64,000 nt of DNA from an uncultured Gammaproteobacteria bacterium (GTDB lineage: Bacteria > Patescibacteriota > Patescibacteriia > Veblenbacterales > UBA10138). The stretch spans positions 367,463 through 431,462 of the forward strand of contig CAYGDX010000001.1 in the NCBI GenBank assembly GCA_964348825.1, in the 5' to 3' direction. The notes under the pieces are model-generated. The model worked only from the letters and a program-made list of their open reading frames with translations, did not search any database and was not told where the DNA came from. Within the stretch, counting starts at the first letter, position 1, and every line of letters starts with the position of its first letter. Made by a program: the position numbers and the translations under genes. Shown one piece after another: positions 5,428 to 59,197 of the stretch.

Positions 5428-6055
5428 ACGATTTAAGTTTAGCACTAATCGATTTTTGGACAAGCGCGTTAGGCGGTAAAATAGCATTTATAAAACCAGC
5501 AATTAAAATTTGACTGGCTTGCTTTGCCGATAAGCCACGACTGCGCAAATAAAAAATATCTTCGTTTGACAAACGCCCAACAGTTGCACCGTGTGAGGCC
5601 TTAACGTCATTGGTTAAAATTTCCAAACTGGGAATTGATTCGGCTTTAGCATTATCGCCGACTAAGAGTGATTTATCTGACAAATAAGCATCAGTACCAC
5701 TCCCATTTTTATCTATTTTTATCATGGCGCGACAAAAACTTTCAGAACTTCCAAATTGCACTCGCCTGATATTAAGGCGCGAGAAACAATTTTTACCACA
5801 ATGGTTTACGGTGAAATTAAATTGTTGGTTTTCAGTCTTACCGCCCAAGTGAACAAAACTCGCCTCTAGTTTTGAATTGTTACCAGCTAAATTAAAATTA
5901 ATATTAAAATTTTTATCGGTAGCACCGTAATTTATAAAGTATAATTTTATGTTGCAGTTGTTTTCTAAAATAAAATCGTAATCTTTTTCTAAAGATATGA
6001 TTTTTTGTTCTATAAATAGTTCATCTTTTTTGTTATTTTTAAAATATTTTTTCAT
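5420..6055 (-). CDS. sufD: Fe-S cluster assembly protein SufD, unusually short (211 aa)
   Basis: SufB/SufD beta-helix C-terminal region (FYLRSRGLSAKQASQILIAGF). It sits between sufB and sufS. Confidence 0.7.
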   Translation of the reverse strand: MKKYFKNNKKDELFIEQKIISLEKDYDFILENNCNIKLYFINYGATDKNFNINFNLAGNNSKLEASFVHLGGKTENQQFNFTVNHCGKNCFSRLNIRRVQFGSSESFCRAMIKIDKNGSGTDAYLSDKSLLVGDNAKAESIPSLEILTNDVKASHGATVGRLSNEDIFYLRSRGLSAKQASQILIAGFINAILPPNALVQKSISAKLKSYV

Positions 6056-6061
6056 AATTTA

Positions 6062-7468
6062 TTATCCCACACTTCCCTCCATCTCCAGTTGGATTAAACG
6101 ATTTAATTCTACGGCATATTCGAGTGGTAATTCTTTGGCCACGGGCTCTATAAAACCAGAAACAATTAATGACACTGCTTCGTTTTCAGACAGCCCACGA
6201 GAGCGCAAATAAAATAATTGCTCCTCCCCTACTTTTGAGACCACGGCTTCATGTTCAATTTGTGTATCACTCGCCTGTATTTTCATAGTGGGGTAAGTGT
6301 CACTCCGTGATTTATCATCCAAAATTAAAGCATCGCATTTTACTTTTGATTTTACACTAGTTGCTTGCGGTGCGACTTTTAAAAGTCCGCGATAACTAGT
6401 ACGTCCGCCGTGATGTGATACTGATTTCGAAATTATGTTTGAGCTAGTATCGGGTGCTAAGTGAATTACTTTAGCACCCGCATCTTGATATTGATTATGG
6501 CCCGCTACCGCTAGTGATAAAATGTCAGCTCGCGCGCCACGACCAGTCATTACCACGCAAGGATATTTCATAGTTAATTTGGCGCCAAAATTACCATCAA
6601 CCCATTCTACAATCGCGCCTTCTTGCGCGACTGCCCGTTTGGTAACTAAATTATAAACATCAGTGGACCAGTTTTGAATGGTAGTATAACGCACGCGCGA
6701 ATAAGGTTTGGCAATAATTTCCACCACCGCGGCGTGTAAAGAATCCACCGCGTAAATTGGCGCGGTACAACCTTCTACATAGTGCACGAAACTTCCCTCT
6801 TCGGCGATTATTAAAGTGCGTTCAAATTGTCCCATATTCGCGGCATTCAAGCGAAAATAAGCTTGGAGTGGTAAAGTAACTTGTACGCCCGCAGGCACAT
6901 AAACAAAACTACCACCACTCCATACGGCGGTGTTGAGGGCGGCAATTTTATTATCGGCGATTGGTACTACTGTACCAATATATTTTTTTACAAGCTCTGG
7001 ATATTTTTGCAGTGCTTCATCAAGTCCGCAAAAAATAACTCCCAATTTTTGCCACTCAGCTTTTAAATTATGATAAATAGTTTCTGATTCGTATTGCGCG
7101 CCTACACCAGCTAAAAATTCTCGCTCAGCTTGAGGTACGCCCAATTTATTAAAAGTATTTTTGATTTTGGTTGGAACTTCGCTCCATTTTTGAGCTTCTC
7201 TTTCAGTCGGCTTAATATAATATTGTATTTTATCAAAATTTAAAGCTGATAAATCAGGCGCCCAAGTTGGCATTGTCTTGGCTTTAAAAATTTGAAGAGC
7301 ACGTAGGCGATTTTGTAGCATCCAGTGGGGTTCATTTTTTAAATAGGAAATCTCTTGGACTACTGGTTCAGATAATCCAGCGGGGATAGAATAAAAAGGC
7401 ACGACATCATCACGAAAGCCGTATCTAGTTCGGTAATTATTAGTGTTGGTGGAATATTTGTTGGACAT
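6062..7468 (-). CDS. sufB: Fe-S cluster assembly protein SufB
   Basis: 468 aa with the typical SufB C-terminus ...FYLRSRGLSENEA...ELNRLIQLEMEGSVG. Confidence 0.9.
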   Translation of the reverse strand: MSNKYSTNTNNYRTRYGFRDDVVPFYSIPAGLSEPVVQEISYLKNEPHWMLQNRLRALQIFKAKTMPTWAPDLSALNFDKIQYYIKPTEREAQKWSEVPTKIKNTFNKLGVPQAEREFLAGVGAQYESETIYHNLKAEWQKLGVIFCGLDEALQKYPELVKKYIGTVVPIADNKIAALNTAVWSGGSFVYVPAGVQVTLPLQAYFRLNAANMGQFERTLIIAEEGSFVHYVEGCTAPIYAVDSLHAAVVEIIAKPYSRVRYTTIQNWSTDVYNLVTKRAVAQEGAIVEWVDGNFGAKLTMKYPCVVMTGRGARADILSLAVAGHNQYQDAGAKVIHLAPDTSSNIISKSVSHHGGRTSYRGLLKVAPQATSVKSKVKCDALILDDKSRSDTYPTMKIQASDTQIEHEAVVSKVGEEQLFYLRSRGLSENEAVSLIVSGFIEPVAKELPLEYAVELNRLIQLEMEGSVG

Positions 7469-8418: not shown

Positions 8419-9013
8419 TAAGACGATTTTCTACCTCAGTCCAATTTATTACTTGGAAGTATGCTTCAACATATTCTGGTCGACGATTTTGGTATTTCAA
8501 ATAGTAAGCGTGTTCCCACACATCAAGCCCTAAAATTGGAGTAAGTTTTTGACTAATTGGACAATCTTGGTTGGGAGTATTAACAATAGATAATTTTTTA
8601 GTTTGGTCAGCTGTAAGCCAAGTGAAGCCACTGCCAAATAGGGAAAGTGCCGATTTAGTAAAAGATTCTTTAAATTTTGCAAAGTCGCCAAAATCGCTAG
8701 TAATTTGTTCAGCTAATTTGCCTTGTGGCTCCTTAGCAACACCCGGTTTAATAATTTCCCAAAATAAACAGTGATTAAAATGCCCACCACCGTGATTGCG
8801 CACCGTAGTGCGAATACTTTCGGGTACAATATTTAAATTAGTTAGTAACCATTCGATTGATTTGTCAGCTAGTTCGGGGGCTTGGGTTAGCACTTCATTC
8901 AATTTGTTAACATAAGTTTGATGATGCTTACTATAGTGTATTTCCATTGTTTTAGCATCAAAATATGGCTCCAGCGCGTCGTAGGAGTAAGGCAATTTAG
9001 GTAATTCAAACAT
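8408..9013 (-). CDS. Fe/Mn-family superoxide dismutase
   Basis: LPKLPYSYDALEPYFDAKTMEIHYSKHHQTYV and DVWEHAYY metal-ligand motifs. Confidence 0.9.
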   Translation of the reverse strand: MFELPKLPYSYDALEPYFDAKTMEIHYSKHHQTYVNKLNEVLTQAPELADKSIEWLLTNLNIVPESIRTTVRNHGGGHFNHCLFWEIIKPGVAKEPQGKLAEQITSDFGDFAKFKESFTKSALSLFGSGFTWLTADQTKKLSIVNTPNQDCPISQKLTPILGLDVWEHAYYLKYQNRRPEYVEAYFQVINWTEVENRLNVI

Positions 9014-44017: not shown

Positions 44018-47000
44018 TTAAATTGCTACTGGAAAATACTCCCTATAAACTCGCACAGTTTCAAGATAGATAGATTCAATCAACCTTTTAGTCTGCATCT
44101 CCTCAACAATTCCTTTCTGAAGCAAAAGAAGTCTTACGTTCTGACGAATGCGCGCTTTTATTGTTTCGTTGTTAGTCCAGTCAATCGCCAAATCACGTCT
44201 AATACGTTTGGTAAGTTCCTTAACAAATTCTTTTATATCAATTCCTGCATTTTTTAGATCAGGATTTTTTTCAAGAGTATCGTAAAACACAATTTCCTCT
44301 TCAGAAAGTCCTGTATCTTTACTCTCTTGATCTAACTTCTTAATTTCATCCGCAATTTCAAGAAGTTGTTTTATTATTTCAGCCGAACTGATAACATTGT
44401 TTTCATATTTTTCAATAAGACCTTCCAATAGAGTAAGCATCGTTTCGTATCTGGCAGTATTAACACGCATACGAGAGCGAATTTCCTGATCGAGAAGTTT
44501 ACGGACAGAATCAACAGCAAAATTGTGATATTGGGATTTCTTTATTTCGGCAACAAATTTCTCATCGAAAATTGAAATACTTTTCTTTTCTTGACCTTCC
44601 ACATTAAACAAATCAACAATACCTTCAGCTTGAATTGAATCTTGCATTAAACTACGAATAGCACTTTCTGTCTCCTCTGGGAAAATAGCATGAGGTAATA
44701 CTGTCTGCTTCCGTATCGCTTCACGAATTGATTGAAAGAATTGTAAATCATTCACAATTTTCATTGCTTCCTCTCCCGGCATAACAAGAGCATGCAGTTT
44801 CGAAAGTTTCGAAACCATTCCCATATATTTCATTTTTCGCTCATCAGATAAATATCCGCTATTGGTTATTACTTCGTTTATTCCGGCTTGCATAATTCTA
44901 ACAAGCTCAACTCCTTTCTTCTGTTTCCAAGAAGTATAATCAACTTTGCCAAAAAATTCGCCGACCTGTTTGTGTATGATGTGCATTTGTGCGACAACCT
45001 CATTAATAGGAATTAGTGCACCATTTTGAATGTCGGAATCATACCAAGCAAGTGCTTTCTTTAAGTTTTCAGCAATACCAATATAATCAACAATCAAGCC
45101 CCCTGGTTTATCTTTAAAAACTCGGTTTACACGAGCAATTGCCTGCATAAGCCCGTGATTTTTAAGTGGTTTATCAAGATACATCGTGTGCAAACATGGT
45201 ATATCAAAGCCGGTGAGCCACATATCGCACACAATGGCAATTTTCAGAGAATCATTTACTTTTTTAAATCTTTTCTCTAGTTTCTTTACATCTTTCTCTG
45301 ATTGTATAACGGAAGCATATTCATCGCTGCTTGAAATAACCACCGCACATTCCGGAGCACCATCAATTTTTTTGATCGCTTCATACATCAGAACCGCGAT
45401 CCTACGACTCATTGTCACGATCATTGCCTTACCCTCAATTGGTCTATTATTAAAGTGATTTACAATATCTTCTGCAATTTTATTTATGCGACTTGGCGCT
45501 CCAACAACTTCTTCGAGCACAGCCCATTCTTTACGCATTCTCGCGTTATCATCAGAGACAACTTCGCCCAATACTGCATCAAATTTAGAATCAATAAATT
45601 TATCGGCAAGATGAAGTGGCACAAGCCGACCTTCGTAGTAAATTGGTACCGTAGATTTATCTATTACCGATTGGCTGATCTTGTACGAACTAACTACATT
45701 ACCAAAAACCCTAACTGTGTCTTTATCATTTTTCGAAATAGGTGTTCCAGTTACTCCCAAAAAGCTTGCATTAGGTAATGCAAGGCGCACATTACCAGCT
45801 AAATTGCTGTATTGCGTACGATGAGCCTCATCAGCAAGAACAATTATATTGTCTCGTTCGGTTAAGGCATTTTGAGCAACTGGATCTTCTTGGAATTTCT
45901 GAATGGTAGTAAAGATAAGCTCACTACCCAAATGTGACAATCGAGTGCGTAAATCTTGTATACTCGACGCTTTTTTCGCAAGCGTTCCATATCCGGTGCG
46001 ACTGAAAGTTTTAAATAACTGATCATCTAAATCTTCACGGTCTGTTAGAAATACATACGCAGGACTTTTTAACTCTGGAATATTTTTTGTTTTATTCACA
46101 TAAAAAACCATTGAAAGTGATTTTCCCGAACCCTGTGTATGCCAAAATACACCAATTTTATGTTCTTGTTTTCCAAGTACTGAGTTAATTGTACTTTCAA
46201 TAGTTTTGTTTACTCCATAATACTGGTGATAGAGTGCCATCTTTTTTGTGTAGGTAACTGCATCACCATCACTGTCGGCTTCAAAAATTGTGAAGTGTTG
46301 TAGCACATCTAAGAATCGCTCTTTGTTAAAAAGTCCTTTAGTCAATACTTCTAATTCTTCCGCTTCTTTAGAAAAATCATTTTCAACATTGATACCTTTC
46401 CATGTTCCATATCGTTCCCATGAACTAGAGATAGTGCCGTGTCGCGCATTAAACAAATCAGACAGCCCGACAACTTGGTTGAATAAAAATAGTTTCGGAA
46501 TTTCCTTTTTGTAATATTCAATATCTCGATACGCCTCACCAATTGTCGCTTCTGTACGAACGCCACTCTTTAATTCGAAAACACCGAGTGGTAAACCATT
46601 CACAAAGACAACAGCGTCTAGACGGCACACCGAATCAATACCTTGCACAGTGAATTGATTCACAACCAAAAATTCATTAGATAACGGCTCGGCAAAATCT
46701 ATAAGTTTAACCAAATCAGTTTTTTCATCTCCATTTTCAGTCCACGAAATCTTTTTACCATTTGTAATCCATGAATAAACCTCCTTGTTGCCAAGGATAA
46801 GATCAGCATGAGAATAATCCGCAATTTCTTTAACAATAATTTCCGCCTGTTCAGCAGGAAGCGACGGATTTATTCTTCGAATGGCTCCAAGAAGTCTGCC
46901 TCTTAAAACCACACCTCGAAAATCCTCACGCTCGGCGCGAGCCTGTCCAGGGTTTATATCTGGCCCATAGATGTGCTCATAACTCTCGCCCTTGAGCCAG

Positions 47001-47047
47001 TCGGTGAGTGATTGTTCCGTTAAATTGTTTTCGTTGATGGGGTTCAT
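44018..47047 (-). CDS. hsdR: Type I restriction enzyme R subunit (HsdR), SF2 helicase-nuclease
   Basis: 1009 aa with an N-terminal nuclease region and helicase motifs I (GSGKS), II (DEAH) and VI. It is adjacent to hsdS and hsdM. Confidence 0.9.
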   Translation of the reverse strand: MNPINENNLTEQSLTDWLKGESYEHIYGPDINPGQARAEREDFRGVVLRGRLLGAIRRINPSLPAEQAEIIVKEIADYSHADLILGNKEVYSWITNGKKISWTENGDEKTDLVKLIDFAEPLSNEFLVVNQFTVQGIDSVCRLDAVVFVNGLPLGVFELKSGVRTEATIGEAYRDIEYYKKEIPKLFLFNQVVGLSDLFNARHGTISSSWERYGTWKGINVENDFSKEAEELEVLTKGLFNKERFLDVLQHFTIFEADSDGDAVTYTKKMALYHQYYGVNKTIESTINSVLGKQEHKIGVFWHTQGSGKSLSMVFYVNKTKNIPELKSPAYVFLTDREDLDDQLFKTFSRTGYGTLAKKASSIQDLRTRLSHLGSELIFTTIQKFQEDPVAQNALTERDNIIVLADEAHRTQYSNLAGNVRLALPNASFLGVTGTPISKNDKDTVRVFGNVVSSYKISQSVIDKSTVPIYYEGRLVPLHLADKFIDSKFDAVLGEVVSDDNARMRKEWAVLEEVVGAPSRINKIAEDIVNHFNNRPIEGKAMIVTMSRRIAVLMYEAIKKIDGAPECAVVISSSDEYASVIQSEKDVKKLEKRFKKVNDSLKIAIVCDMWLTGFDIPCLHTMYLDKPLKNHGLMQAIARVNRVFKDKPGGLIVDYIGIAENLKKALAWYDSDIQNGALIPINEVVAQMHIIHKQVGEFFGKVDYTSWKQKKGVELVRIMQAGINEVITNSGYLSDERKMKYMGMVSKLSKLHALVMPGEEAMKIVNDLQFFQSIREAIRKQTVLPHAIFPEETESAIRSLMQDSIQAEGIVDLFNVEGQEKKSISIFDEKFVAEIKKSQYHNFAVDSVRKLLDQEIRSRMRVNTARYETMLTLLEGLIEKYENNVISSAEIIKQLLEIADEIKKLDQESKDTGLSEEEIVFYDTLEKNPDLKNAGIDIKEFVKELTKRIRRDLAIDWTNNETIKARIRQNVRLLLLQKGIVEEMQTKRLIESIYLETVRVYREYFPVAI

Positions 47048-47051
47048 AATA

Positions 47052-47909
47052 CTATTTTACCTTTGGAACAACGCCAGTTATGTCAGAGACCATATCCTTT
47101 ATATCTGACACAATGGGCATTATTTTTTTATCAAACTTATCGCTCCCTGTCTCATTATCTCTAATGTTTTTCATCGGTGATGAATATAGTTGTCCTATTG
47201 ATTCCAAGATAAAATCAAGTTTTTTCTTATACTCATCTCCCGGTTGATCTGCAAACAAGTTCTCAATTATTTCTTTGTAAGCTTCAAGTGAACGAGCAAT
47301 GGAAGCTTTAAATTCATATTCTTCAATTAATCTTTTTGAGCGAGAATACTCACGATTTACAAAAAATTCAAAAAAGATTATTGGAGAAGTCAAAGCAAGC
47401 TTTACTAAGAAACTTATCTCAAAGATTGTATCTCCCTTAGAAACCTGCCATACAACTACTCCGAAAACAGCTAAAAGCAGTGCGGTACTTGTACCTACGA
47501 GCCACTTAAACCATTTCTCATTGTCTTTCTTTAAATCATCTTTTACTTTATCAAAAGAGTTTGATAATTTTTCGTTTGAAATAATGCCAAGTTGTTGCAA
47601 TGAGAGGGTATGTATCTCATCCGTTTTGGTTTTAAGTGCCTCAACTGTACCCTTAATTTCTTCGGTTAAATTTTGTTGCTCAGTAGTGCTTTCTTTAAGA
47701 GTCTCAACTTCTTGTACTAGATTATCTAATTCCAGTTTTTTTGCAGGAATAGCATCTATGTTTACTTTCTGTGCTTGTAATTGTGCAATCAACGTATCCA
47801 TAACTTGCTTTTCTGATGAAACATTTTGCACCAAAACATTCAAATCTCCCAGTGCCTTAAGATTTTGATCTATTTCTGTTAATTTTTGTGCTAATTCTTT
47901 TTTATTCAT
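47052..47909 (-). CDS. Uncharacterised protein embedded between hsdS and hsdR: an N-terminal coiled coil of about 130 aa, two TM helices and a cytoplasmic C-terminal domain
   Basis: Heptad-rich N-terminus, then the hydrophobic segments WFKWLVGTSTALLLAVFGVVVWQV and IFEISFLVKLALTSPIIFFEFFV. No known domain was recognised. Confidence 0.45.
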   Translation of the reverse strand: MNKKELAQKLTEIDQNLKALGDLNVLVQNVSSEKQVMDTLIAQLQAQKVNIDAIPAKKLELDNLVQEVETLKESTTEQQNLTEEIKGTVEALKTKTDEIHTLSLQQLGIISNEKLSNSFDKVKDDLKKDNEKWFKWLVGTSTALLLAVFGVVVWQVSKGDTIFEISFLVKLALTSPIIFFEFFVNREYSRSKRLIEEYEFKASIARSLEAYKEIIENLFADQPGDEYKKKLDFILESIGQLYSSPMKNIRDNETGSDKFDKKIMPIVSDIKDMVSDITGVVPKVK

Positions 47910-47913
47910 AAAT

Positions 47914-49005
47914 TTAAATTAATTTTTCTAATAATTGATCTCTCGACTCTTTAAGTTTTACATTTTCTTTTTCAAGCACAACCATTTCACTTATAAAACT
48001 TTTAATTTTTGAAACAAAAGCCTTCGCGAGTTCAACGGGGGGTATGAAAAATTCAATACTCGATAACTCGCTCCAATGACGCTTGTACTCTCTCTGGTCA
48101 ATCAAATCTTTTGTCAAAAAATAAGTAAATATTGGGTTGTAACCATCTTTCTCGCCAAGAGGAATTGTATTAGGACCTAACGAGAATGGTTCACATATAA
48201 TTTGGGTTCTGCAAGTATGATCACCGAAAATTAGCACCGGATTATATATATTTGCCTTAAAAGAAGGTTCTTCTTCACTAAAACCAATTATCCCTTTTGA
48301 AGATTGGTCGTAAACGGGTATAGAACCTTTGTTCAACAATGAATCTTCTTTGTAGGTTTTTTGTGTAGATAATCGTTCAACAACATCTTCGATTTTCCCC
48401 ATATTCCACCCCTCCGGAATTTCTCCCATTTCACTTTCTATCATTTTCTTTTTTTCATATCCCGGAAAACGCAAGTTTACAAACCATTCATTAAAAATTG
48501 TTTGTGCTGTAGCTTCAAGATTTTTGATTATCTTATTATTATTTTCAATTTTTGAATCATAAGCACTCAATATTTCGGTAATTTTCTTTTGTGTTAAAAA
48601 TTCTGGGGTCTCAACTTGTAAGTTATATATGGTATCTCTACTTAATCCCGGAACAGCAGAATCGCCACCATAACGAGGTAAATTAATTCTCTTTAAGAGA
48701 TAGAAAATATATTTTAAATCAAAACCTTCTTTGGGTTCATCAATAAAAAATGCAGTGTCGATAGGAAAAGAAGGTTGTTCAGAAAAATAGAGAGATCCTA
48801 CATTTCCTTTTCGTCCAATGATTATTGCGGGCGTATTAACTTTCGCTTCATTGTGATAACCCACAACCCCACTTGATGCATAAACTGGGACAGATCCCTT
48901 AATTCTTTTTGGTTCGGGCAATCCAAAACCATATTTAATATCAGCCAAGTCGCTGACAAGATATGGTTTTGATTCTATATTTATTTGTTCCAGTAATTTG
49001 CTCAT
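47914..49005 (-). CDS. hsdS: Type I restriction-modification specificity subunit (HsdS)
   Basis: Target-recognition domain followed by the conserved coiled-coil repeat (ILSAYDSKIENNNKIIKNLEATAQTIFNEWF). At 363 aa it is somewhat short. Confidence 0.8.
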   Translation of the reverse strand: MSKLLEQINIESKPYLVSDLADIKYGFGLPEPKRIKGSVPVYASSGVVGYHNEAKVNTPAIIIGRKGNVGSLYFSEQPSFPIDTAFFIDEPKEGFDLKYIFYLLKRINLPRYGGDSAVPGLSRDTIYNLQVETPEFLTQKKITEILSAYDSKIENNNKIIKNLEATAQTIFNEWFVNLRFPGYEKKKMIESEMGEIPEGWNMGKIEDVVERLSTQKTYKEDSLLNKGSIPVYDQSSKGIIGFSEEEPSFKANIYNPVLIFGDHTCRTQIICEPFSLGPNTIPLGEKDGYNPIFTYFLTKDLIDQREYKRHWSELSSIEFFIPPVELAKAFVSKIKSFISEMVVLEKENVKLKESRDQLLEKLI

Positions 49006-49011
49006 ATATAA

Positions 49012-49776
49012 TTATTTTTTACTAACTAAATCAAGAATATCCTTGGTTGGTTTTATTTCCAGAAATTGGTACAGACTTGGTTTAATAACTTCCAATATAG
49101 AAGCAAGGAATCCAGAAGTTTGCCCGTTGTTATTTTTTGCAGTTTTTAACCATCGAGCTTTTGCAACATCAAATGATTCAATTTTATCTTTTTTTAATTT
49201 CGCGATCGCAACAGGTTTATATTCTTGATTAATGATAGAAGCCATAGATGGATTATTTAACATATCAATAACACGCTGTGCATTTTCTGCTTTCATTAAA
49301 TCTCCATCTATAAACTGAAAGTTTCTGTGTACATGCTGTATTCTATGCTCAATGACACCATTAAATACCTCTTTTGTTTTTTCTACGCCTGCTTGAAAAA
49401 AGTCTTCAATGTCATCCTTATTTATTGCAATTTTCTTTATATCTTTTTTTAGTCCAAAAAACAGATTTTCTATTTTATTCTTTAAGGTATCCATATCTTG
49501 TAGATATGCATGAATATGATGATTAAGTTCTTCTGTTCTATCTATTTTTTCTGAATTAGAATAGAACTCTTGAAAATATACTTCATATCGTAAAATCTTC
49601 TGCCATGCATAATTTACACTAATTAATAAATTGTTATACTTCTCGAGATTCTTCTTGTTCAATCTCGAAACATCTAACAAATTTTTCAATTCATTTTTCA
49701 AAATATCTGGATAAAGACAAATTCCAAAGTCTCCCAATATTTCATCCATTATGTGATTTTGGTTTTGGGTAAGCAT
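49012..49776 (-). CDS. Uncharacterised soluble protein embedded between hsdM and hsdS
   Basis: 254 aa with no recognisable domain. It contains an RIQHVH segment (Rx4H-like). It is tightly packed, with 6-7 nt gaps on either side. Confidence 0.45.
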   Translation of the reverse strand: MLTQNQNHIMDEILGDFGICLYPDILKNELKNLLDVSRLNKKNLEKYNNLLISVNYAWQKILRYEVYFQEFYSNSEKIDRTEELNHHIHAYLQDMDTLKNKIENLFFGLKKDIKKIAINKDDIEDFFQAGVEKTKEVFNGVIEHRIQHVHRNFQFIDGDLMKAENAQRVIDMLNNPSMASIINQEYKPVAIAKLKKDKIESFDVAKARWLKTAKNNNGQTSGFLASILEVIKPSLYQFLEIKPTKDILDLVSKK

Positions 49777-49781
49777 ATAAT

Positions 49782-51569
49782 TTAAAATCCTAATTCCTTA
49801 AGATTTTTCTCAATATCTTTTTCTAATTCACGACCCTTTGTAAATGCTTCCCGGAGTTCTCCAGAGAGTTTTTGCATTTTTTCTTCAAAAGAAATTCCAT
49901 CATCTTCAATATCTGCAAGTCCGACATATCTTCCCGGGGTAAGAGTATATCCGTTCTTTTTTATTTCTTCTAGGTTTGCTGATTTACAAAAACCAGAAAC
50001 ATCTTCGTATTTTAGCGCTCCTTTTTCTTCACGCCATGAACGAACAGTACCCGCAATCTTTTCAAGATTATCTTTATTGAAAACAACCTGTTTTCGAGAA
50101 ATTTGTTCAAAAATATCTCGGGCATCAATAAAAAGAGTTTCACCTTTGCGATTACGGAAACGATCGCCACTTTTATTTTTTGCCAAAAACCACAAAGAAA
50201 CCGGGAGAGATACATTATAAAAGAGTTTTGATGGACAAGAAATAATCACGTCCACAAGGTCTGCGTCGATGAGCTTCTGACGAAGTTCACCCTCTTTTCC
50301 AGACACAGCAAGCGCTCCATTTGGCATAACGAATCCCGCATGTCCGTTTGGTGAAAGATGATGTGTAAAGTGTTGCACCCACATAAAATTTGCACTGCCA
50401 GAAGGCGGTACACCTAAAATAATGCGTGGGTCATTGTCAGAAAGTTTTTGAGGTTCCCATTCTGCATTAAACGGAGGATTGGCGATAACAAAATCTGCTT
50501 GAAGATTAGGAAATTTGTCTTGATAGTATGTATTGCCCAATTCTATTTTTCCTGAAAGTCCCCGAATAGCAAGATTCATTTTACAAAGACGAAGTGTTGT
50601 TTGATTGCTTTCTTGTCCACTGATAGAAAGCTTGGATGGATCCATTTTATGATCATGTAAATATTCTCCCATAGACACAAACATTCCACCACTACCGCAG
50701 GCAGGATCAAGAATGCGAGCGTTTTCATATGGCTCAAGAATTTCAACAAGAAGTTTTACAATAGAACGAGGGGTAAAAAATTCTCCTCCGCGCTTTCCTT
50801 CGGCAGAAGCAAATTGTCCCAAAAAATATTCATAGATGCGACCGAGAATGTCTTTTTCTCGGTCAAAATCGTGATCAAAAGAAATTTTAGAAAAAATATT
50901 TACCAATTCACCAAGAACAGTGTGGTCCAAATTTGTTTTTGTATATACACGAGGAAGAACATTTTCAAGTTGTACAGGATTATCTTTCTCAATCAATTCC
51001 ATTGCGTTGTCCAAAACTTTTCCCAAATCAGGACTCATGGTCTTTGTTTGTAAATATTCCCAACGAGATTTTTCCGGAACGTAGAATACACCCTCGGAAG
51101 TATAAAAATCTTTTGTTTCAAGAATTGCTTTTCGTGCTTCATCGGTCGGAACATAAAAATCTTCATTCTTTTTATCGCGAGTCATTCCCGTAAGAATTTC
51201 TCTGCGTTTATAGAATGAGTCAGAAATGTATTTCAAGAAAAGTAAGCCTAAAACTATGTTTTTATATTCCGAAACGTCTATATTTCCACGTAATTTATCT
51301 GCCGCCGCCCAAAGTTCTTTTTCAAAACCAAGGTCATGGTGATTAACCCCAGTCTTTTTGGAAATTGCTTTTTCTTGAGCTTTTTTTTGCTCTTCTTTTA
51401 TACGATCTTTTATTTGCTGAGATAAACTACCTATTTCATATAAAAAACCGGTACCTACTTCCTTAACCTTTAAATTGGCTTCGCCTTTTAATTTCTTTTG
51501 AATTGCCTGCCTCGTAACTCCCAAAATACGAGCCAAGTCTGCAGTTGAAATGTAGTCATTATTATTCAT
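49782..51569 (-). CDS. hsdM: Type I restriction-modification methyltransferase subunit (HsdM) with an N-terminal HTH extension
   Basis: N-terminal HTH region YISTADLARILGVTRQAIQKKL, then the HsdM N-domain and a gamma-class N6-adenine MTase domain (FFTPRSIV; NPPF motif VIANPPFN). The likely start is the ATG at 51567-51569; the track's TTG-start extension to 51587 would lie inside the promoter. Confidence 0.85.
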   Translation of the reverse strand: MNNNDYISTADLARILGVTRQAIQKKLKGEANLKVKEVGTGFLYEIGSLSQQIKDRIKEEQKKAQEKAISKKTGVNHHDLGFEKELWAAADKLRGNIDVSEYKNIVLGLLFLKYISDSFYKRREILTGMTRDKKNEDFYVPTDEARKAILETKDFYTSEGVFYVPEKSRWEYLQTKTMSPDLGKVLDNAMELIEKDNPVQLENVLPRVYTKTNLDHTVLGELVNIFSKISFDHDFDREKDILGRIYEYFLGQFASAEGKRGGEFFTPRSIVKLLVEILEPYENARILDPACGSGGMFVSMGEYLHDHKMDPSKLSISGQESNQTTLRLCKMNLAIRGLSGKIELGNTYYQDKFPNLQADFVIANPPFNAEWEPQKLSDNDPRIILGVPPSGSANFMWVQHFTHHLSPNGHAGFVMPNGALAVSGKEGELRQKLIDADLVDVIISCPSKLFYNVSLPVSLWFLAKNKSGDRFRNRKGETLFIDARDIFEQISRKQVVFNKDNLEKIAGTVRSWREEKGALKYEDVSGFCKSANLEEIKKNGYTLTPGRYVGLADIEDDGISFEEKMQKLSGELREAFTKGRELEKDIEKNLKELGF

Positions 51570-51577
51570 ACCAAGTA

Positions 51578-51623
51578 AGTGTAGCAAAACACTAATAGGT
51601 TGTCAAGTGACAACCTATTAGTG
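51578..51623 (-). promoter_or_regulatory. Promoter of the hsdM operon, embedded in a perfect 16-2-16 palindrome (candidate autoregulatory operator)
   Basis: On the minus strand, TTGACA (51601-51606), a 17-nt spacer, then TACACT (51578-51583), with the ATG 8 nt downstream. The palindrome CACTAATAGGTTGTCA-AG-TGACAACCTATTAGTG spans 51590-51623. Confidence 0.5.
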
Positions 51624-52028: not shown

Positions 52029-52187
52029 CTGGGAGACATGGATTCTGCGCCTTTTCGGCGCATCCGCCGTGAAGGCGGAGAACTACTTTATATTTAGATC
52101 CAGAATCTGTTGTCCCCGCCTTTTCGGCGCGCCTGCCTCCTCGGCAGGTAAATCGCAAATGAGGCGACTACCATTAAACGACCCCCT
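52029..52187 (-). repeat. Degenerate tRNA-Gln-like composite element (copy A)
   Basis: In minus-strand orientation it reads AGGGGGTCGTTTAATGGTAG, then a 52-nt insert, then GGACAACAGATTCTGGATCT, then about 50 nt, then AGAATCCATGTCTCCCAG. The tRNA-Gln D-arm, anticodon arm (CUG) and 3' end are interrupted by a structured module with GAAA-tetraloop hairpins. The acceptor stem is not complementary, so it is probably non-functional. Confidence 0.55.
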
Positions 52188-52211
52188 TAGTTTCGTAATT
52201 CAAAGTTCACA

Positions 52212-53261
52212 TTACTTTTTAATCTTTGCCTCATTTTTTGACCTCTCGACCATAAACCTTACTCCTTCTGACATATTAGATTCTTTAATTTCTATATCCG
52301 GATGAGCATTTTGAAAAACACGATAAATTTCATCAGCAAATGCTTGACCAACTACCGGCACACCATCAAAATCAAGTAGTATTATTTTAAATTTATCTAA
52401 ACCAAATAGAATTCGTCGTGCTTGTGAACGTGAAATATTAACACCGCCCATTGTAAAAAGTTTAACTCTAATTTCAGTTTTATCAAAACCATAATCACTG
52501 TCAACTGAAATATTTGTATACTTCTTGAACACATCAGTAAGGTGTAGCCCTGAATTAACATCGATTTCAAAAATAACCTTAGTACCTCTTTTTACTATTG
52601 GAATATTTTTTATATTTGGACCTTTTGCCGTAATGATAAGTTGATAACGGAAACTATTCAATATAAATGTATCTGCTGATTTAGAGGTAAAAAAAATCCC
52701 CTCTCCAGAATGAGATTTTGACATTGTTGTTGTTTTACCTTTGAGTAAATCTTGAATCGCCTCAATTTCAGAATGAAGCTTTTTTTTCTTCATAATATTA
52801 CGAAATACTCCCACACCCGAATCCTCTACTATAAAAGAAAGTTTGCTATCGCGAATCGCAACTTCAATATTTATTACTTTTGACTTCGAATGTTCAATCG
52901 CATTATTAAATATTTCAGAAAATGCAAAGGTAAAAATACTTTGAATGTTTTCTGGTAATTTTAGAAGCTGTGAAAATCTCTGCTCTACTTCCATAAGAAC
53001 TTTGTGTTCTTCTAATTTTATATTTTTATATTTTTTACGAAAAATAGATGGAAATACCTTGGGATTTTTTTCTGCATATTCCGTAGAAATGTAAAAGGCA
53101 GAGCGTGTTCCACCAAATTTTATTATTTCTTTTTCAAAAATAAGCTCTGCTATAAGTTGGTTTACATATTGGCGAGACACACCAAACTGCACAGAAAGCT
53201 CTTTAGTAGTCACTTTCCCTTGTTTATTCGCTATTTCTAGTATTTTTATTTTATTTATCAT
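52212..53261 (-). CDS. Three-domain protein: N-terminal winged HTH, GHKL/HATPase_c ATPase (anti-sigma-factor-kinase-like) and a C-terminal STAS-like DUF4325 domain
   Basis: HTH KVTTKELSVQFGVSRQYVNQLIAEL. GHKL N-box EIFNNAIEHS, G1 box VEDSGVGV and G2 box SGEGIFF. C-terminal LLDFDGVPVVGQAFADEIYRVF is typical of DUF4325. The likely start is the ATG at 53259-53261; the track's TTG-start ORF extends to 53294. Confidence 0.6.
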   Translation of the reverse strand: MINKIKILEIANKQGKVTTKELSVQFGVSRQYVNQLIAELIFEKEIIKFGGTRSAFYISTEYAEKNPKVFPSIFRKKYKNIKLEEHKVLMEVEQRFSQLLKLPENIQSIFTFAFSEIFNNAIEHSKSKVINIEVAIRDSKLSFIVEDSGVGVFRNIMKKKKLHSEIEAIQDLLKGKTTTMSKSHSGEGIFFTSKSADTFILNSFRYQLIITAKGPNIKNIPIVKRGTKVIFEIDVNSGLHLTDVFKKYTNISVDSDYGFDKTEIRVKLFTMGGVNISRSQARRILFGLDKFKIILLDFDGVPVVGQAFADEIYRVFQNAHPDIEIKESNMSEGVRFMVERSKNEAKIKK

Positions 53262-53271
53262 AAGCAAGTAT

Positions 53272-53312
53272 ATTGTAAACCAATCTATAATCAATTGTCA
53301 AGTAATTGACAA
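53272..53312 (-). promoter_or_regulatory. Promoter with a palindromic -35 region for the HTH-GHKL-STAS gene
   Basis: On the minus strand, TTGTCAATTACTTGACA includes a TTGACA -35 (53296-53301). A 17-nt spacer follows, then TACAAT (53272-53277), with the ATG 10 nt downstream. It shares the TTGTCA/TGACAA half-sites with the hsdM promoter. Confidence 0.5.
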
Positions 53313-53371
53313 CTAGCCCAGTAATGTTTTATATGAAACAAATCCGCCAAAATTGTTAATCATCGTCCCAA

Positions 53372-53491
53372 CTGGGAGACATGGATCCCTGTAGTATATC
53401 ACTTCGGTGATAACTACAGGGCGCGGTCGGCGCCTCTTCGGCGGGCCTGCCTCACCGGTAGGTAAATCGCTAATTAGGCGACTACTCATTC
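53372..53491 (-). repeat. tRNA-Gln-derived structured repeat (copy B), immediately 3' of the genuine tRNA-Gln
   Basis: It carries the same roughly 55-nt three-hairpin module as copy A (GTAGTCGCCTAATTAGCGATTTACCTACCGGTGAGGCAGGCCCGCCGAAGAGGCG). After that comes a perfect 13-bp hairpin with a CGAA loop, and then a copy of the tRNA 3' end, GATCCATGTCTCCCAG. Confidence 0.55.
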
Positions 53492-53500
53492 TCTATATAA

Positions 53501-53571
53501 CTGGGGGACATGGATTCGAACCATGATAAACAGATCCAGAATCTGTTGTCCTACCATTAGACGATCCCCCA
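53501..53571 (-). tRNA. tRNA-Gln (anticodon CUG)
   Basis: Hand-folded cloverleaf. Acceptor stem UGGGGGA/UCCCCCA with U1:A72 and discriminator G73, both Gln identity elements. D-arm GUCU/GGAC. Anticodon arm ACAGA-UUCUGGA-UCUGU. A 4-nt variable loop. T-arm CAUGG-UUCGAAU-CCAUG. No CCA is encoded. Confidence 0.85.
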
Positions 53572-53589
53572 ACGTATTTAAATTCTAAA

Positions 53590-55420: not shown

Positions 55421-55545
55421 AATGTCAAATGTCAAAATCCAAATGTCAAATCAAATCCCAAATCCAAATGTTTAAAATTTTAATCATTTGGTCATTTGAC
55501 ATTGATTTGTAATTTGAGCTTGGGATTTTGGATTTTTAAACTAAA
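55421..55545. repeat. Intergenic palindromic repeat (copy 5; AAATGTCAAA / AAATCC units with an inverted partner)
   Basis: aaatgtcaaatgtcaaaatccaaatgtcaaatcaaatcccaaatccaaatg ... catttggtcatttgacattgatttg...tgggattttggattttt. Confidence 0.55.
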
Positions 55546-56590: not shown

Positions 56591-59197
56591 TTATAATGTC
56601 GCCTCCGAAGCCGGAGCTGAACCTTGTGAGCCCGCTTCGCCAAGTTTAGTACGATCCATAATATCAGCATCTACTTCGGCGCGCGAGCGCGCGTATTTAA
56701 GGCGCGAGAGGGCCTTAATTTTTTCAGCCAAAGTCGCATCACCCTTACCCGGTGGCAAAGTGCGCATATTAAATGGTCGCGACGGTGCATTATCAATTAA
56801 TAATTTAATATAGGCATTGTATTGCTCTACGTTCACTAAATCATAAGCCGAGAAAACCGGCGCGAATTCTTTGGCAATTAATTCAGCATCTTCCACGCCA
56901 ATTTTAAAGGAAATAATAGTACCAGTAGTACCAAGCACCGCATCGCGAACTTTCGTATTACCCTTGTCTTGCATCAATTGGCCTAAATATTGATGCGCAA
57001 TAATTAAATCCAAACGATATTTTCGGGCCTCGGATAAAATTGTGGAAATAGAATCGGTAATAAAGTTTTGGAATTCATCAATATACAAATAAAAATCATT
57101 ACGTTCGCTTTCGGCCATATTCGCCCGCGCCATCGCCGCCATTTGAAGTTTTGAAACTACAATTAACCCTAAGAGCGACGAGTTCACTTCTCCGGTTTTA
57201 CCTTTGGATAAATTCACCAACAATATCTTACCTTTATCCATTACCTCGCGAAAATCAAAACCACTTTTAGCTTGGCCAATAATATTTCGCATCATTTCAT
57301 TTTCCACAAAACGACCAACTTTGGAAATCAAATACCCCAGCATTTCTGATTTATGGAAATCCGAAGTTTTGGCCATTTCTTTTTCCCAAAAGGCGCGCAC
57401 TACTACATCTTTTAATTTACTAACTTTGTATTTTTGAAAAGCTGGATCAGTAAACATGCGCGGAATATCGGCAATCGTACCTGGCGAACTTTCATCAGCC
57501 ATTAAAGTCAGCATCACGTTGCGCATATTATGTTCAAACATTGGACCAATCATTTCCGGTGGAAAAAGTTTGTAAAAAATCGCAATCATTTCTTGCACCA
57601 CAAAATCTTTTTGATTTTCGTCGTGGAATTCAAGCATATTTAAGCCCATTGGTCGCTCAATATCGGAAGGATCAAATACAATTACATCATCGGCCCTTTC
57701 CACCGGCACTTGCCTGAGCACGCCTTCCACTAAATCGCCATGCGGATCCACCACACAAACACCCTTGCCGGCTTTAATATCTTGCACAATCATATTTTCA
57801 AGTAGCACCGATTTACCAGTACCTGATTTACCAATAATATACATATGGCGCCGGCGATCATCATCTTTTATTTTTACCTCTACTTCTTCACCGCGGTAAT
57901 AATTTATACCCAAAGTTAGGCCGATTTTTGGAATATTAACTGGCGCTGAAGCACGCCGAGCCGCGAGCCAGCGAATATTAGGCGTTTCGGAAGAAGGTAG
58001 TGGGAAATGAAAAAGCGAAGCGAGCTCTTCAGTATTTAAAATAAAGCGTTTACTATATTGAAATGTACGATGAATAAAATTATAAAAAAACCGATTAGAA
58101 TTCCACGGATGTTTAAAAACAAAAGCATTGCCATACTCATAAATATTAAACTGAGCAAAAGCATTTAAAATATTTCTTAAATACATTTCCGCTGTAGTTT
58201 GATTTTCCCCCATTGCTACTACACGCGCTACAATTTCAAAACCGGCTTTAGAGGCCTTTTGTTCTATACCTTTAACCATTTCTTGCTCTAAGGGTGATAA
58301 TTTATAATCAGTCGGCGGCTTCATTTTTTGATCAGGTTGACTGGCGCTAGTGGGCACCATACCACCTAAAGCACTTAATCCCTTAGAAAATAAACTTCGG
58401 CCGGAAGCATCAGAGGAATTTTTACCTTGCTGCATTCTGGAGGCAAGTTTTACACCTTGACTACGCCAACTAGTCGGCGCCGAACGCACTACTAATTGAA
58501 CTGCCGCCCCATATTCAGTGGGAATTTTTGACATTACATTAGTAATACTATTTAATGGATCGGTTTCAAATTGCTTATAGGTTTTTATTGGGTAAGCAAA
58601 ACCACGCGCTAATTTCATATACGAACCAACTGCCACACCTTGGGGCGAAAAAATATTGTAATCTGGCTCTTCTTCAATTTGGGCGTGCGGATATTGCGCA
58701 TTGATTTGTTGCTCTACAAAAGCCTGGTTTTTGCGAGGAATAGCCACGTAAAAAGATATCATGCCGTTATCCGCCACAATTTCTAAAGCATAATGATCCG
58801 AGCGACCTAAAATAAAATTTTGACATTTTTTAATTATTTTACGGAAAAAAGAATGTGGCTTTAAGCCAACTAAACCAGATAGTAAGATTTCGGCCACGGA
58901 AATTTGCTCTTGAATTTGTTGTGAAGCTGGTTTATCTTGCTTAGCCGCGGCATCGGGCTGACCAACTTCGCGTGGCAAACGCACGAGTAGTATCGCCATA
59001 CCTAAAGAGGCGTGTACTTGATTAATTTTGTGACGTACCGCTCGCCAAAAAATAAATAAAACAACTACAATAAATAAAGTGGTAATTGAAAACCAAAAAC
59101 CAGGTCCAAAATCAAAACTTGGGACTTGCGTATTATACTGCAATCCAATATTAAGATTTTCAAAATCGTAGGGATTATTTTCTGGCATAATTACCAA
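56591..59197 (-). CDS. VirD4/TraD/TraG-family coupling-protein-like ATPase, with N-terminal TM segments and a TrwB-type DNA-binding ATPase domain
   Basis: Two N-terminal TM helices, Walker A IIGKSGTGKSVLL, Walker B YLYIDEFQNF and the helical all-alpha insertion typical of type IV coupling proteins. Confidence 0.7.
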   Translation of the reverse strand: MVIMPENNPYDFENLNIGLQYNTQVPSFDFGPGFWFSITTLFIVVVLFIFWRAVRHKINQVHASLGMAILLVRLPREVGQPDAAAKQDKPASQQIQEQISVAEILLSGLVGLKPHSFFRKIIKKCQNFILGRSDHYALEIVADNGMISFYVAIPRKNQAFVEQQINAQYPHAQIEEEPDYNIFSPQGVAVGSYMKLARGFAYPIKTYKQFETDPLNSITNVMSKIPTEYGAAVQLVVRSAPTSWRSQGVKLASRMQQGKNSSDASGRSLFSKGLSALGGMVPTSASQPDQKMKPPTDYKLSPLEQEMVKGIEQKASKAGFEIVARVVAMGENQTTAEMYLRNILNAFAQFNIYEYGNAFVFKHPWNSNRFFYNFIHRTFQYSKRFILNTEELASLFHFPLPSSETPNIRWLAARRASAPVNIPKIGLTLGINYYRGEEVEVKIKDDDRRRHMYIIGKSGTGKSVLLENMIVQDIKAGKGVCVVDPHGDLVEGVLRQVPVERADDVIVFDPSDIERPMGLNMLEFHDENQKDFVVQEMIAIFYKLFPPEMIGPMFEHNMRNVMLTLMADESSPGTIADIPRMFTDPAFQKYKVSKLKDVVVRAFWEKEMAKTSDFHKSEMLGYLISKVGRFVENEMMRNIIGQAKSGFDFREVMDKGKILLVNLSKGKTGEVNSSLLGLIVVSKLQMAAMARANMAESERNDFYLYIDEFQNFITDSISTILSEARKYRLDLIIAHQYLGQLMQDKGNTKVRDAVLGTTGTIISFKIGVEDAELIAKEFAPVFSAYDLVNVEQYNAYIKLLIDNAPSRPFNMRTLPPGKGDATLAEKIKALSRLKYARSRAEVDADIMDRTKLGEAGSQGSAPASEATL

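Follow-up and report, generated by a model that had tools for sequence, protein, structure and literature searches.

Pairs of GHKL kinases and STAS-domain proteins gate bacterial immune operons and a toxin upon DNA damage (PMC13373217, 2026). The kinase CapK, a helix-turn-helix (HTH)-STAS-GHKL protein, is switched on by single-stranded DNA (ssDNA) and phosphorylates Ser54 of CapS, a STAS-winged helix-turn-helix (wHTH) protein (Chambers et al., EMBO J 2026, PMC13373217). CapS is an autorepressor, and phosphorylation of Ser54 splits the CapS dimer, which de-represses the adjacent immune operon; 88 of 443 capKS pairs adjoin restriction-modification (RM) systems (PMC13373217). In VapKSC, the CapK-like kinase VapK (STAS plus GHKL) phosphorylates the DUF4325 antitoxin VapS and thereby frees the PIN toxin VapC (PMC13373217). 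VapS was shown experimentally to be an antitoxin, and VapKSC protects against a phage (PMC13373217); an earlier census had coupled a VapC clade to DUF4325 genes (PMC5499597). Here, we describe a gene that encodes a wHTH, a GHKL domain and a DUF4325 (STAS-like) domain in one polypeptide. It lies in a 64,000-nucleotide stretch of contig CAYGDX010000001.1 (assembly GCA_964348825.1), the whole of which is called the window below. We read the large family to which it belongs as single-chain, autorepressing, ATP-dependent one-component switches, and we give this reading a probability of roughly 55%.

The gene is located on the minus strand at 52212..53261 (ATG 53261-53259, stop 52214-52212) and encodes a protein of 349 residues. 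The longest reading in the open reading frame (ORF) listing, 52212..53294 (minus strand), opens with TTG, is uninterrupted and would give 360 residues; alignment with 24 close relatives moved the start to the ATG at 53261 (MxNK...). A first-pass annotation, made by a model from the DNA letters, had proposed a single polypeptide with these three domains. The proposal is confirmed: the protein is one chain, with the wHTH followed by the GHKL domain and then by DUF4325. A reading as two genes separated by a frameshift was rejected, as the ORF is unbroken and relatives are uniformly about 335-360 residues long.

Pfam matches follow this architecture. The C-terminal match to DUF4325 (PF14213; residues 281-334) is well above threshold in the full protein (E=1.9e-11, 43.9 bits against a cutoff of 23) and reaches E=1.4e-12 with the C-terminal domain alone, which bears out the STAS-like C-terminus of the annotation. 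Matches to HATPase_c_2 (residues 99-199, E=4.9e-6, 27.0 bits against a cutoff of 27.4) and HATPase_c (residues 113-234, E=1.6e-5, 25.7 bits against 26.4) fall just under their cutoffs, and the winged-helix HTH_24 match (residues 3-41, E=3.6e-4) scores 20.5 bits against 21.9. The N-terminal wHTH spans about residues 1-65 (53067..53261, minus strand), with a recognition helix at about G27-V-S-R-Q-Y-V-N-Q-L. The GHKL ATPase/kinase domain, of SpoIIAB/RsbW type, spans about residues 70-250 (52512..53054, minus strand) and carries an N box (E116..N120..H124), a G1 box (D147-S-G-V-G151), a lid (K174-G-K-T-T-T179) and a G2 box (H184-S-G-E-G188). The DUF4325/STAS-like domain occupies about residues 258-349 (52215..52490, minus strand) and includes the segments S277-R-S279 and G305-Q306-A307-F308-A-D-E. 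An AlphaFold2 model built on the alignment of relatives (mean pLDDT 78, pTM 0.64) has SpoIIAB and RsbW as its best structural matches in Foldseek (SpoIIAB 1til_E, E=8e-6). Other searches were less specific: the BFVD viral fold search returned only generic GHKL, HTH and DUF4325 matches, a PDB sequence search with the family profile returned nothing significant, and the PHROGs match was PHROG 3364, annotated "unknown function".

Conservation was scored across 128 diverse cluster representatives, and it singles out the ATP site. In the GHKL domain, N119, N120, H124, D147, G149, G151 and G186 are invariant, E116 is kept in 126 and G188 in 127 representatives. The N, G1 and G2 boxes recognized in the first-pass annotation are therefore real features of the family, and because the ATP-binding residues are invariant or nearly so, nucleotide binding is under strong selection. 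The lid, K174-G-K-x-T178-T179, resembles the TTKP lid of SpoIIAB.

The STAS-like domain departs from the known switches at the phospho-acceptor. For comparison, CapK and CapS sequences were taken from the source data of the paper that described them, VapS from the SEQRES record of PDB 9Z7O and VapK from its AlphaFold 3 model file. VapS, an antitoxin of known structure and function, matches PF14213 with E=1.3e-17; CapK, CapS and VapK have no Pfam DUF4325 match. In the profile alignment, the VapS motif LDFSNVKMFA-S48-PFF pairs with LDFDGVPVVG-Q306-AFA, which sets the phosphorylated S48 of VapS against Q306. This position is Gln in 127 of the representatives, and the next, 307, is Gly or Ala, with Ser in only five. 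The family therefore lacks the phospho-acceptor of VapS, CapS, SpoIIAA and RsbV, and with Gln in its place a classical kinase-to-STAS phosphoswitch at that site is excluded. Judged by this alignment, the DUF4325 domain of the family is a putative pseudo-substrate, or at least no conventional substrate. A second motif, SRSxA, is invariant or nearly so (S277 and A281 in 128/128 representatives, R278 in 127 and S279 in 126) and caps the N-terminus of the first STAS helix. It is a candidate for a relocated phospho-acceptor, or for a contact with nucleotide or nucleic acid.

Upstream of the gene, a sigma-70-type promoter (53272..53301, minus strand) combines the -35 hexamer TTGACA (53301-53296) with the -10 hexamer TACAAT (53277-53272) and agrees with the consensus at 11 of 12 positions; TTGACA-18-TACAAT is the best sigma-70-like site of the region. 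The near-consensus promoter of the earlier annotation thus stands, with a spacer of 18 rather than 17 nt. Within 53262-53277 (minus strand), the -10 hexamer is set apart from the ATG by only 10 nt, ATACTTGCTT, and no Shine-Dalgarno sequence is visible; the mRNA is therefore probably leaderless or nearly so.

Three copies of one 8-bp word lie in and next to this promoter. Repeat 1 (-51; 53305..53312, minus strand) reads TTGTCAAT, where most relatives carry TTGACAAT; repeat 2 (-40; 53294..53301, minus strand) reads TTGACAAT and contains the -35 hexamer; repeat 3 (-18; 53272..53279, minus strand) reads TTTACAAT and contains the -10 hexamer. When the 110 nt 5' of about 80 homologues from the candidate phyla radiation (CPR) were aligned, a conserved layout emerged, (G)TTGACAAT-nnn-TTGACAAT-(14 nt)-GTTTACAAT, often followed by another TTTACAAT and then the ATG, which this further word abuts in many relatives. 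Copies of the word, TTKACAAT, start at -51, -40, -18 and sometimes -8. Since the steps are 11, 22 and about 11 bp, all copies face the same side of the helix. The first-pass annotation had placed the -35 element in a palindrome, and TTGTCAA-ttac-TTGACAA is indeed found at 53312-53295, formed by repeats 1 and 2. However, the operator is an array of direct repeats, and the palindrome is the product of one base change in the distal repeat TTGTCAAT, TTGTCAA being the reverse complement of TTGACAA. At the distal site, direct repeats without this change are the rule among relatives; TTGTCAA recurs there in four loci (L049, L068, L069 and L074).

The array is a property of the family. Copies of one 8-mer, with one mismatch allowed, were counted in the 120 nt upstream of each gene, with upstream regions from the same loci as controls. 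At least three copies were found in 78 of 79 genome loci, as against 309 of 1,412 control regions, and at least four copies in 47 of 79 as against 40 of 1,412. The usual number is three, and some relatives have up to seven. The word itself shifts as the proteins diverge, from TTGACAAT to TTGACAAC, TTTACGGT, GACATAGAA, CTTACAAG, ATCTTAAAAC and others; in divergent homologues it changes along with the HTH, as in CTTGACAAC, GTTTACGGT (recognition helix VSRQQASK), GTTGACATAGAA, CTTACAAG, ATCTTAAAAC and TTGACACC. The idea that the repeats merely reflect the likeness of -35 and -10 hexamers was rejected, given the conserved extra copy at -51, the arrays of up to seven copies and the co-variation of word and protein. 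This conservation and co-variation point to a putative autoregulatory operator recognized by the protein's own wHTH. With the -35 and the -10 both covered by repeats, the natural interpretation is autorepression.

In about 45 loci, totalling about 600 kb, the operator word clusters solely 5' of the gene, with one exception (L101). In the window, the only phased triple starts at 53312, 53301 and 53279, and the single word is not enriched (16 observed, 14.3 expected). A metagenome-wide scan for other genes preceded by TTGACAATNNNTTGACAAT gave 132 listed matches, 12 of which precede a homologue; a 16-base pattern of this kind is too common by chance at that scale. The exception in L101 is a second phased cluster at 8659-8692, 1.3 kb upstream of the homologue; a HicA/HicB-like pair on the minus strand adjoins it, and no gene on the plus strand follows. 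This cluster may be left over from another copy or mark a second target. In the window, three close TTGACATT words, each one mismatch away from the operator word, lie at about 55421-55449 (minus strand), some 110-130 nt upstream of dnaX. They are probably unrelated to the operator, because their spacing is 15 and 7 bp instead of the 11-bp phase.

Phased direct repeats are also a hallmark of iterons and centromeres, and the protein could be conceived as a DNA-binding ATPase for replication, partition or maintenance of a mobile element, as ParR acts on parC and Rep on iterons, with the GHKL domain serving as an ATP-driven clamp and not as a kinase. The 11-bp phase, the arrays of up to seven copies and a mobile single-gene distribution, sometimes beside tRNA or transfer-messenger RNA (tmRNA) genes, would fit such a role. 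However, in every case the repeats fall on the -35 and -10 elements of the gene itself and usually number only three, the loci are chromosomal, and no replication, partition or recombinase gene is linked to the family. We consider this explanation very improbable.

The reading as an autorepressing one-component switch draws on what the computation shows: the three-domain architecture, an ATP site that does not vary, the loss of the canonical acceptor, an operator that is conserved and co-varies with the protein and, as described below, the limits of the module and the absence of any partner gene. It can be laid out as a sequence of events. The wHTH would bind at least three TTKACAAT direct repeats, 11 and 22 bp apart on one helix face, at its own -35 and -10 elements; repeat conservation argues strongly that the outcome is self-repression. 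Binding would probably be head to tail, as a cooperative PhoB-like oligomer. The GHKL domain, to judge from its invariant catalytic motifs, would bind and hydrolyse ATP, and the tethered STAS-like domain may dock on it, within one chain or between the two chains of a dimer, as the pairs SpoIIAB-SpoIIAA and CapK-CapS would suggest. Oligomerisation and DNA binding would then shift with the nucleotide state, or when a non-canonical residue such as S277 or S279 is phosphorylated, so that a signal leads to de-repression. As in CapK and VapK, the signal could be a stress or infection cue such as ssDNA, although this is speculative. Equally speculative is the output beyond self-induction, which could be kinase or ATPase activity once the protein has accumulated, or binding to a partner whose gene lies elsewhere. 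The first-pass annotation had imagined a self-contained switch. Comparative operator evidence favours that idea in the form of a DNA-binding, autoregulated one-component switch. Given the conserved glutamine, the STAS domain cannot be a classical substrate of RsbV/SpoIIAA type in it.

Several observations weigh against this proposal. Without the canonical phospho-acceptor, the analogy with phosphorylation-driven release may fail, and a protein with its own promoter as its only DNA target would leave the biological output unexplained. Similarity to the characterised kinases is also modest (70-77% probability) and confined to the GHKL domain. In hhalign comparisons, an alignment of close homologues gave nothing significant against single CapK or CapS sequences; a 44-member family profile aligned with a 26-member CapK profile through the GHKL domains only (70% probability, E=4e-5), and VapK aligned with the family at 77% probability (E=2e-5). 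The order of domains differs as well, being HTH-GHKL-STAS here and HTH-STAS-GHKL in CapK. Lastly, the pTM of the structural model is just 0.64, with low confidence at residues 250-290.

The fusion is far from rare, contrary to the novelty first ascribed to it. A search of 5.8 billion proteins found at least 6,900 relatives of like length and architecture at E<=1e-3, and immune-operon regulators built from GHKL and STAS domains, CapK/CapS and VapKSC, were described in 2026 (PMC13373217). The best 120 of these at least 6,900 relatives are all 338-374 residues long (nearly all 345-360) and 66-97% identical to the protein; source labels of relatives read "DUF4325 domain-containing protein", "ATP-binding protein" or "anti-sigma regulatory factor (Ser/Thr protein kinase)". 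An exhaustive HMMER search over representatives of clusters formed at 50% identity matched 2,233 clusters at E<=1e-3, or 612 when the threshold was E<=1e-30; most of the matches are full length. With two peptide motifs, at least 585 homologues were confirmed among the matches listed from GTDB contigs, one genome per species. The best 80 GTDB matches are almost all from a broad range of patescibacterial classes (Saccharimonadia, Paceibacteria, Microgenomates, Gracilibacteria, Peregrinibacteria and Doudnabacteria), and more distant members occur in metagenome-assembled genomes of Spirochaetia and Kiritimatiellia. Homologues with 25-45% identity are carried on 41 IMG/VR viral or prophage contigs. 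In the literature searched, no DUF4325 paper dealt with or tested the wHTH-GHKL-DUF4325 architecture.

Family members lack a constant genomic partner. Clustering of the four genes on each side at 123 loci revealed no conserved partner gene in genomes; recurring neighbours (phage late activator, terS, terL and portal genes) were restricted to related prophage contigs. On about 14 such IMG/VR contigs (among L019-L044), the homologue sits between a sigma-region-4-like late-gene activator of about 140 residues and terS, terL and portal genes, a typical accessory or moron slot. In 80 genomes, the 127 immediate neighbours are spread over 122 Pfam families of three members at most and include enolase, Pol I, RuvB, secretion ATPases and glycosyltransferases; PADLOC matches among them are few and mostly generic. 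Neighbours in the window and at the 80 genome loci include no PIN/VapC gene, and no capS-like neighbour was found either.

The same comparisons define the boundaries of the module. In relatives with 71-81% DNA identity, similarity sets in with the first operator word (53312-53316) and breaks off no more than 11 nt from the stop codon (52212-52223). The conserved, moving unit is thus the operator-promoter and the ORF alone, about 1.1 kb. In 7 of 60 loci, as well as in the window, there is a tRNA or tmRNA gene no farther away than about 500 bp, and these tRNAs always differ. Across different CPR classes, protein identity of 66-77% together with a conserved promoter argues for horizontal spread and not vertical housekeeping descent. 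The first-pass annotation had named ubiquitous housekeeping conservation as a possible objection; the family is widespread, yet patchily placed and apparently horizontally transferred.

This pattern bears on a conventional explanation, in which the protein is an anti-sigma factor and a housekeeping-type CPR regulator, its GHKL domain sequestering a host or phage sigma factor and its fused STAS domain acting as a built-in antagonist. The structural matches to SpoIIAB and RsbW speak for it, as do NCBIfam matches to spIIAB and RsbW, which are weak and far below the family cutoffs, and the position after the sigma-region-4-like late activator in about 14 prophage loci. However, no sigma factor gene occurs among neighbours in CPR loci, genomic positions are patchy and variable, the identity across CPR classes indicates transfer and not vertical descent, and an HTH with its own operator is no feature of anti-sigma factors. 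Such a role is improbable.

In the window, the gene is embedded in remnants of tRNA-Gln. An intact tRNA-Gln(CTG) gene (53500..53572, minus strand; ARAGORN, and 63 bits in Rfam) precedes the module and is followed by a partial tRNA-Gln-derived repeat (53372..53485, minus strand), composed of a 60-nt GC-rich segment (53426-53485) and a copy of the tRNA 3' end (53372-53388). Just downstream of the stop codon lies a tRNA-Gln-like pseudo-gene (52029..52190, minus strand), in which an acceptor/D arm, a 53-nt GC-rich insert, an anticodon arm, a second insert and a tRNA 3' end (52029-52045) follow one another; the second insert replaces the 5' half of the T arm. The 17-nt 3' end of tRNA-Gln thus recurs at 53372-53388 and 52029-52045, where 0.09 copies would be expected by chance, and the GC-rich segment is duplicated at 52112-52171 with 85% identity. 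The gene and its promoter lie between the second and third 3'-end copies. Neither ARAGORN nor Rfam calls the pseudo-tRNA; it folds better than shuffled sequences (z=-3.2) and could be a decayed duplication of an att site or the relic of a tRNA with inserts. In L249, a locus whose homologue is 97% identical in protein sequence, the same tRNA-Gln pieces are rearranged around a GIY-YIG endonuclease gene (5610-5867, within 5519-6083 of that locus), which suggests a recombination or homing hotspot at the tRNA-Gln downstream of dnaX.

Beyond the third tRNA-end copy begins a type I RM island, so that the gene is situated, as the annotation had stated, between tRNA-Gln-derived repeats at the edge of an island. 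The island contains hsdM (49782-51587), hsdS (47914-49005) and hsdR (44018-47047), interleaved with two ORFs without annotated function. These ORFs, 47052-47909 (minus strand; 285 residues) in the hsdR/hsdS gap and 49012-49776 (minus strand; 254 residues) in the hsdS/hsdM gap, have no Pfam match and may be accessory RM-linked genes. On the other side, two genes from dnaX and in an otherwise core-looking part of the genome, an 868-residue protein with signatures of TrwB/VirD4-type coupling proteins and of HerA/DUF87 ATPases is encoded at 56591-59197 (minus strand).

Proximity to hsdM-hsdS-hsdR could indicate that the gene is a local transcriptional controller of the RM or accessory island, akin to CapK/CapS, BrxR or CapW, and the annotation had considered a controller of an abortive-infection or defence effector. 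Methyltransferase or RM genes are also found near the gene in L249, L001 and L004, and the frequency with which capKS pairs adjoin RM systems lends the idea some appeal. However, neither the rest of the window nor, L101 excepted, the flanks of relatives contain a further cluster of the operator word; the pseudo-tRNA and terminator-like hairpins separate the gene from the RM operon; and neighbours differ nearly everywhere. BLAST with seven RM or defence queries found homologues within 10 kb on either side in only 4 of 80 independent loci. The order in L249 is dnaX, methyltransferase, GIY-YIG, tRNA-Gln, the homologue and an EcoRI-like methylase, so the same cassette there adjoins a different type of RM system. 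RM and defence genes seldom adjoin the gene in other genomes, so that the type I RM island beside it here looks incidental. Genomic context thus does not support a controller of defence islands, which was rejected as the main reading, and control of the island is quite improbable.

Defence could also reside in the gene itself. The cassette is 97% identical in DNA to that of L249 over window positions 53443-52211, as compared with 91% for the adjacent core gene dnaX (55317-53781), as would fit a recent transfer or exchange of the cassette. A gene that stands alone, moves horizontally and is under strong predicted autorepression resembles a toxin-antitoxin or abortive-infection module, and the protein may combine all of its parts: the GHKL kinase would be an effector that phosphorylates host or phage proteins, the STAS domain, devoid of the serine, a fused cis-inhibitor (compare CapRel-type proteins, or VapS acting on VapC), and the HTH the source of tight autorepression as in type II antitoxins, with a phage cue freeing the kinase. 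The antitoxin role of the DUF4325 protein VapS and the phage protection afforded by VapKSC make this conceivable, and so do distant homologues in prophage accessory slots between the late activator and terS, and RM or defence genes bordering the gene in the window, L001, L004 and L249. On the other hand, no defence-protein model in PADLOC-DB 2.0 matched the protein (the sole match was mad1, E=0.024, within the HTH region), defence and RM neighbours are rare across 80 genomes, tblastn searches of 50,697 deposited phage genomes and of 72,556 plasmids came back without a homologue, and RsbW-type kinases are not known as toxins. We regard a module of this kind as possible but unlikely.

A bolder version of the autorepressing switch shares some of these elements. 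The gene would be an autonomous, horizontally spreading sensor-effector in one protein, in which a kinase is joined to a tethered pseudo-substrate STAS domain and an autorepressor HTH, with the switch rewired to S277-R-S279 or dependent purely on nucleotide state. It would sense an infection or DNA-damage cue, for example ssDNA, and the de-repressed kinase would make it a minimal defence or stress module. This version is tentative and rather unlikely; if true, it would be especially relevant to genome-reduced CPR bacteria.

Were the autorepressing one-component switch correct, the family would represent the most compact form of GHKL-kinase/STAS pairs, with sensor, switch and DNA-binding output in one chain and a portable operator-promoter. 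It is far commoner than CapK (at least 6,900 as against 361 relatives) and is concentrated in Patescibacteria, whose regulation and phage defence are barely known. Directly testable predictions follow from the clear operator, from the catalytic residues that never vary, from the Gln in place of the phospho-serine and from the invariant SRS motif. Moreover, a self-contained module of 1.1 kb with co-varying operator-protein pairs could supply orthogonal regulatory parts. Interest would be modest if the protein were merely an autoregulated transcription factor of unknown regulon.

Among described systems, several share single features with the family. The first-pass annotation held that kinase and STAS domains are separate proteins in established systems; Rv1364c, CapK and VapK each combine both in one chain. 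In Rv1364c of Mycobacterium tuberculosis (fused PAS-RsbU-RsbW-RsbV; PDB 3KE6), however, the fusion includes PAS and PP2C phosphatase domains, lacks an HTH and acts on sigma F, and it is not a mobile single-gene module with its own operator. SpoIIAB-SpoIIAA and RsbW-RsbV offer the N, G1 and G2 boxes, a TTKP-like lid and a STAS-fold partner; here, by contrast, no sigma factor partner is evident, the STAS domain is fused and without the phospho-serine, and a DNA-binding domain is present. For DNA recognition, the analogy is a different one. Winged helices of PhoB/OmpR type bind tandem direct repeats in 11-bp phase that overlap the -35 element, and the present family has in common with them the winged helix, direct repeats one helical turn apart and the -35 overlap. 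The likeness is limited to DNA recognition, since PhoB/OmpR proteins are an unrelated family of receiver-domain activators and not GHKL/STAS autorepressors.

VapKSC is closer. The C-terminal domain falls in the Pfam family of VapS, PF14213, the N-box and G1 regions of the kinase resemble those of VapK (for example, EIYANSFEHSKSK as compared with EIFNNAIEHSKSK), and in both cases a GHKL domain and a STAS domain would work as a module. In contrast to VapKSC, no PIN/VapC gene is linked, the kinase and DUF4325 are fused with an HTH added, and the phosphorylated S48 of VapS aligns with the nearly invariant Q306.

With CapK/CapS, the family shares all three domain types: an HTH, an anti-sigma-type GHKL kinase and a STAS domain. 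The wHTH repressor CapS binds cooperatively at its own promoter, with its STAS domain governing oligomerisation; the co-varying phased repeats that overlap the -35 and -10 elements may point to autoregulation here as well. Both can be found beside RM systems, capKS often so. The differences are nonetheless substantial. capKS comprises two genes, capK followed by capS, whereas there is one ORF here; CapK is HTH-STAS-GHKL and CapS STAS-wHTH, whereas the order here is wHTH-GHKL-STAS. The phospho-serine S54 of CapS is absolutely conserved, and its counterpart here, mapped through the alignment of VapS S48 with Q306, is Gln followed by Gly or Ala. CapS sites are palindromes, in contrast to the phased direct repeats. 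capKS always lies upstream of an immune operon, whereas the wHTH-GHKL-DUF4325 gene has neither a conserved neighbour nor a dependent operon, and the CapK family is the smaller by far. The architecture is already recorded in databases under DUF names and is best filed as a fused, rewired relative of CapK/CapS- and VapKSC-type systems, with which it shares the parts list and, probably, the logic.

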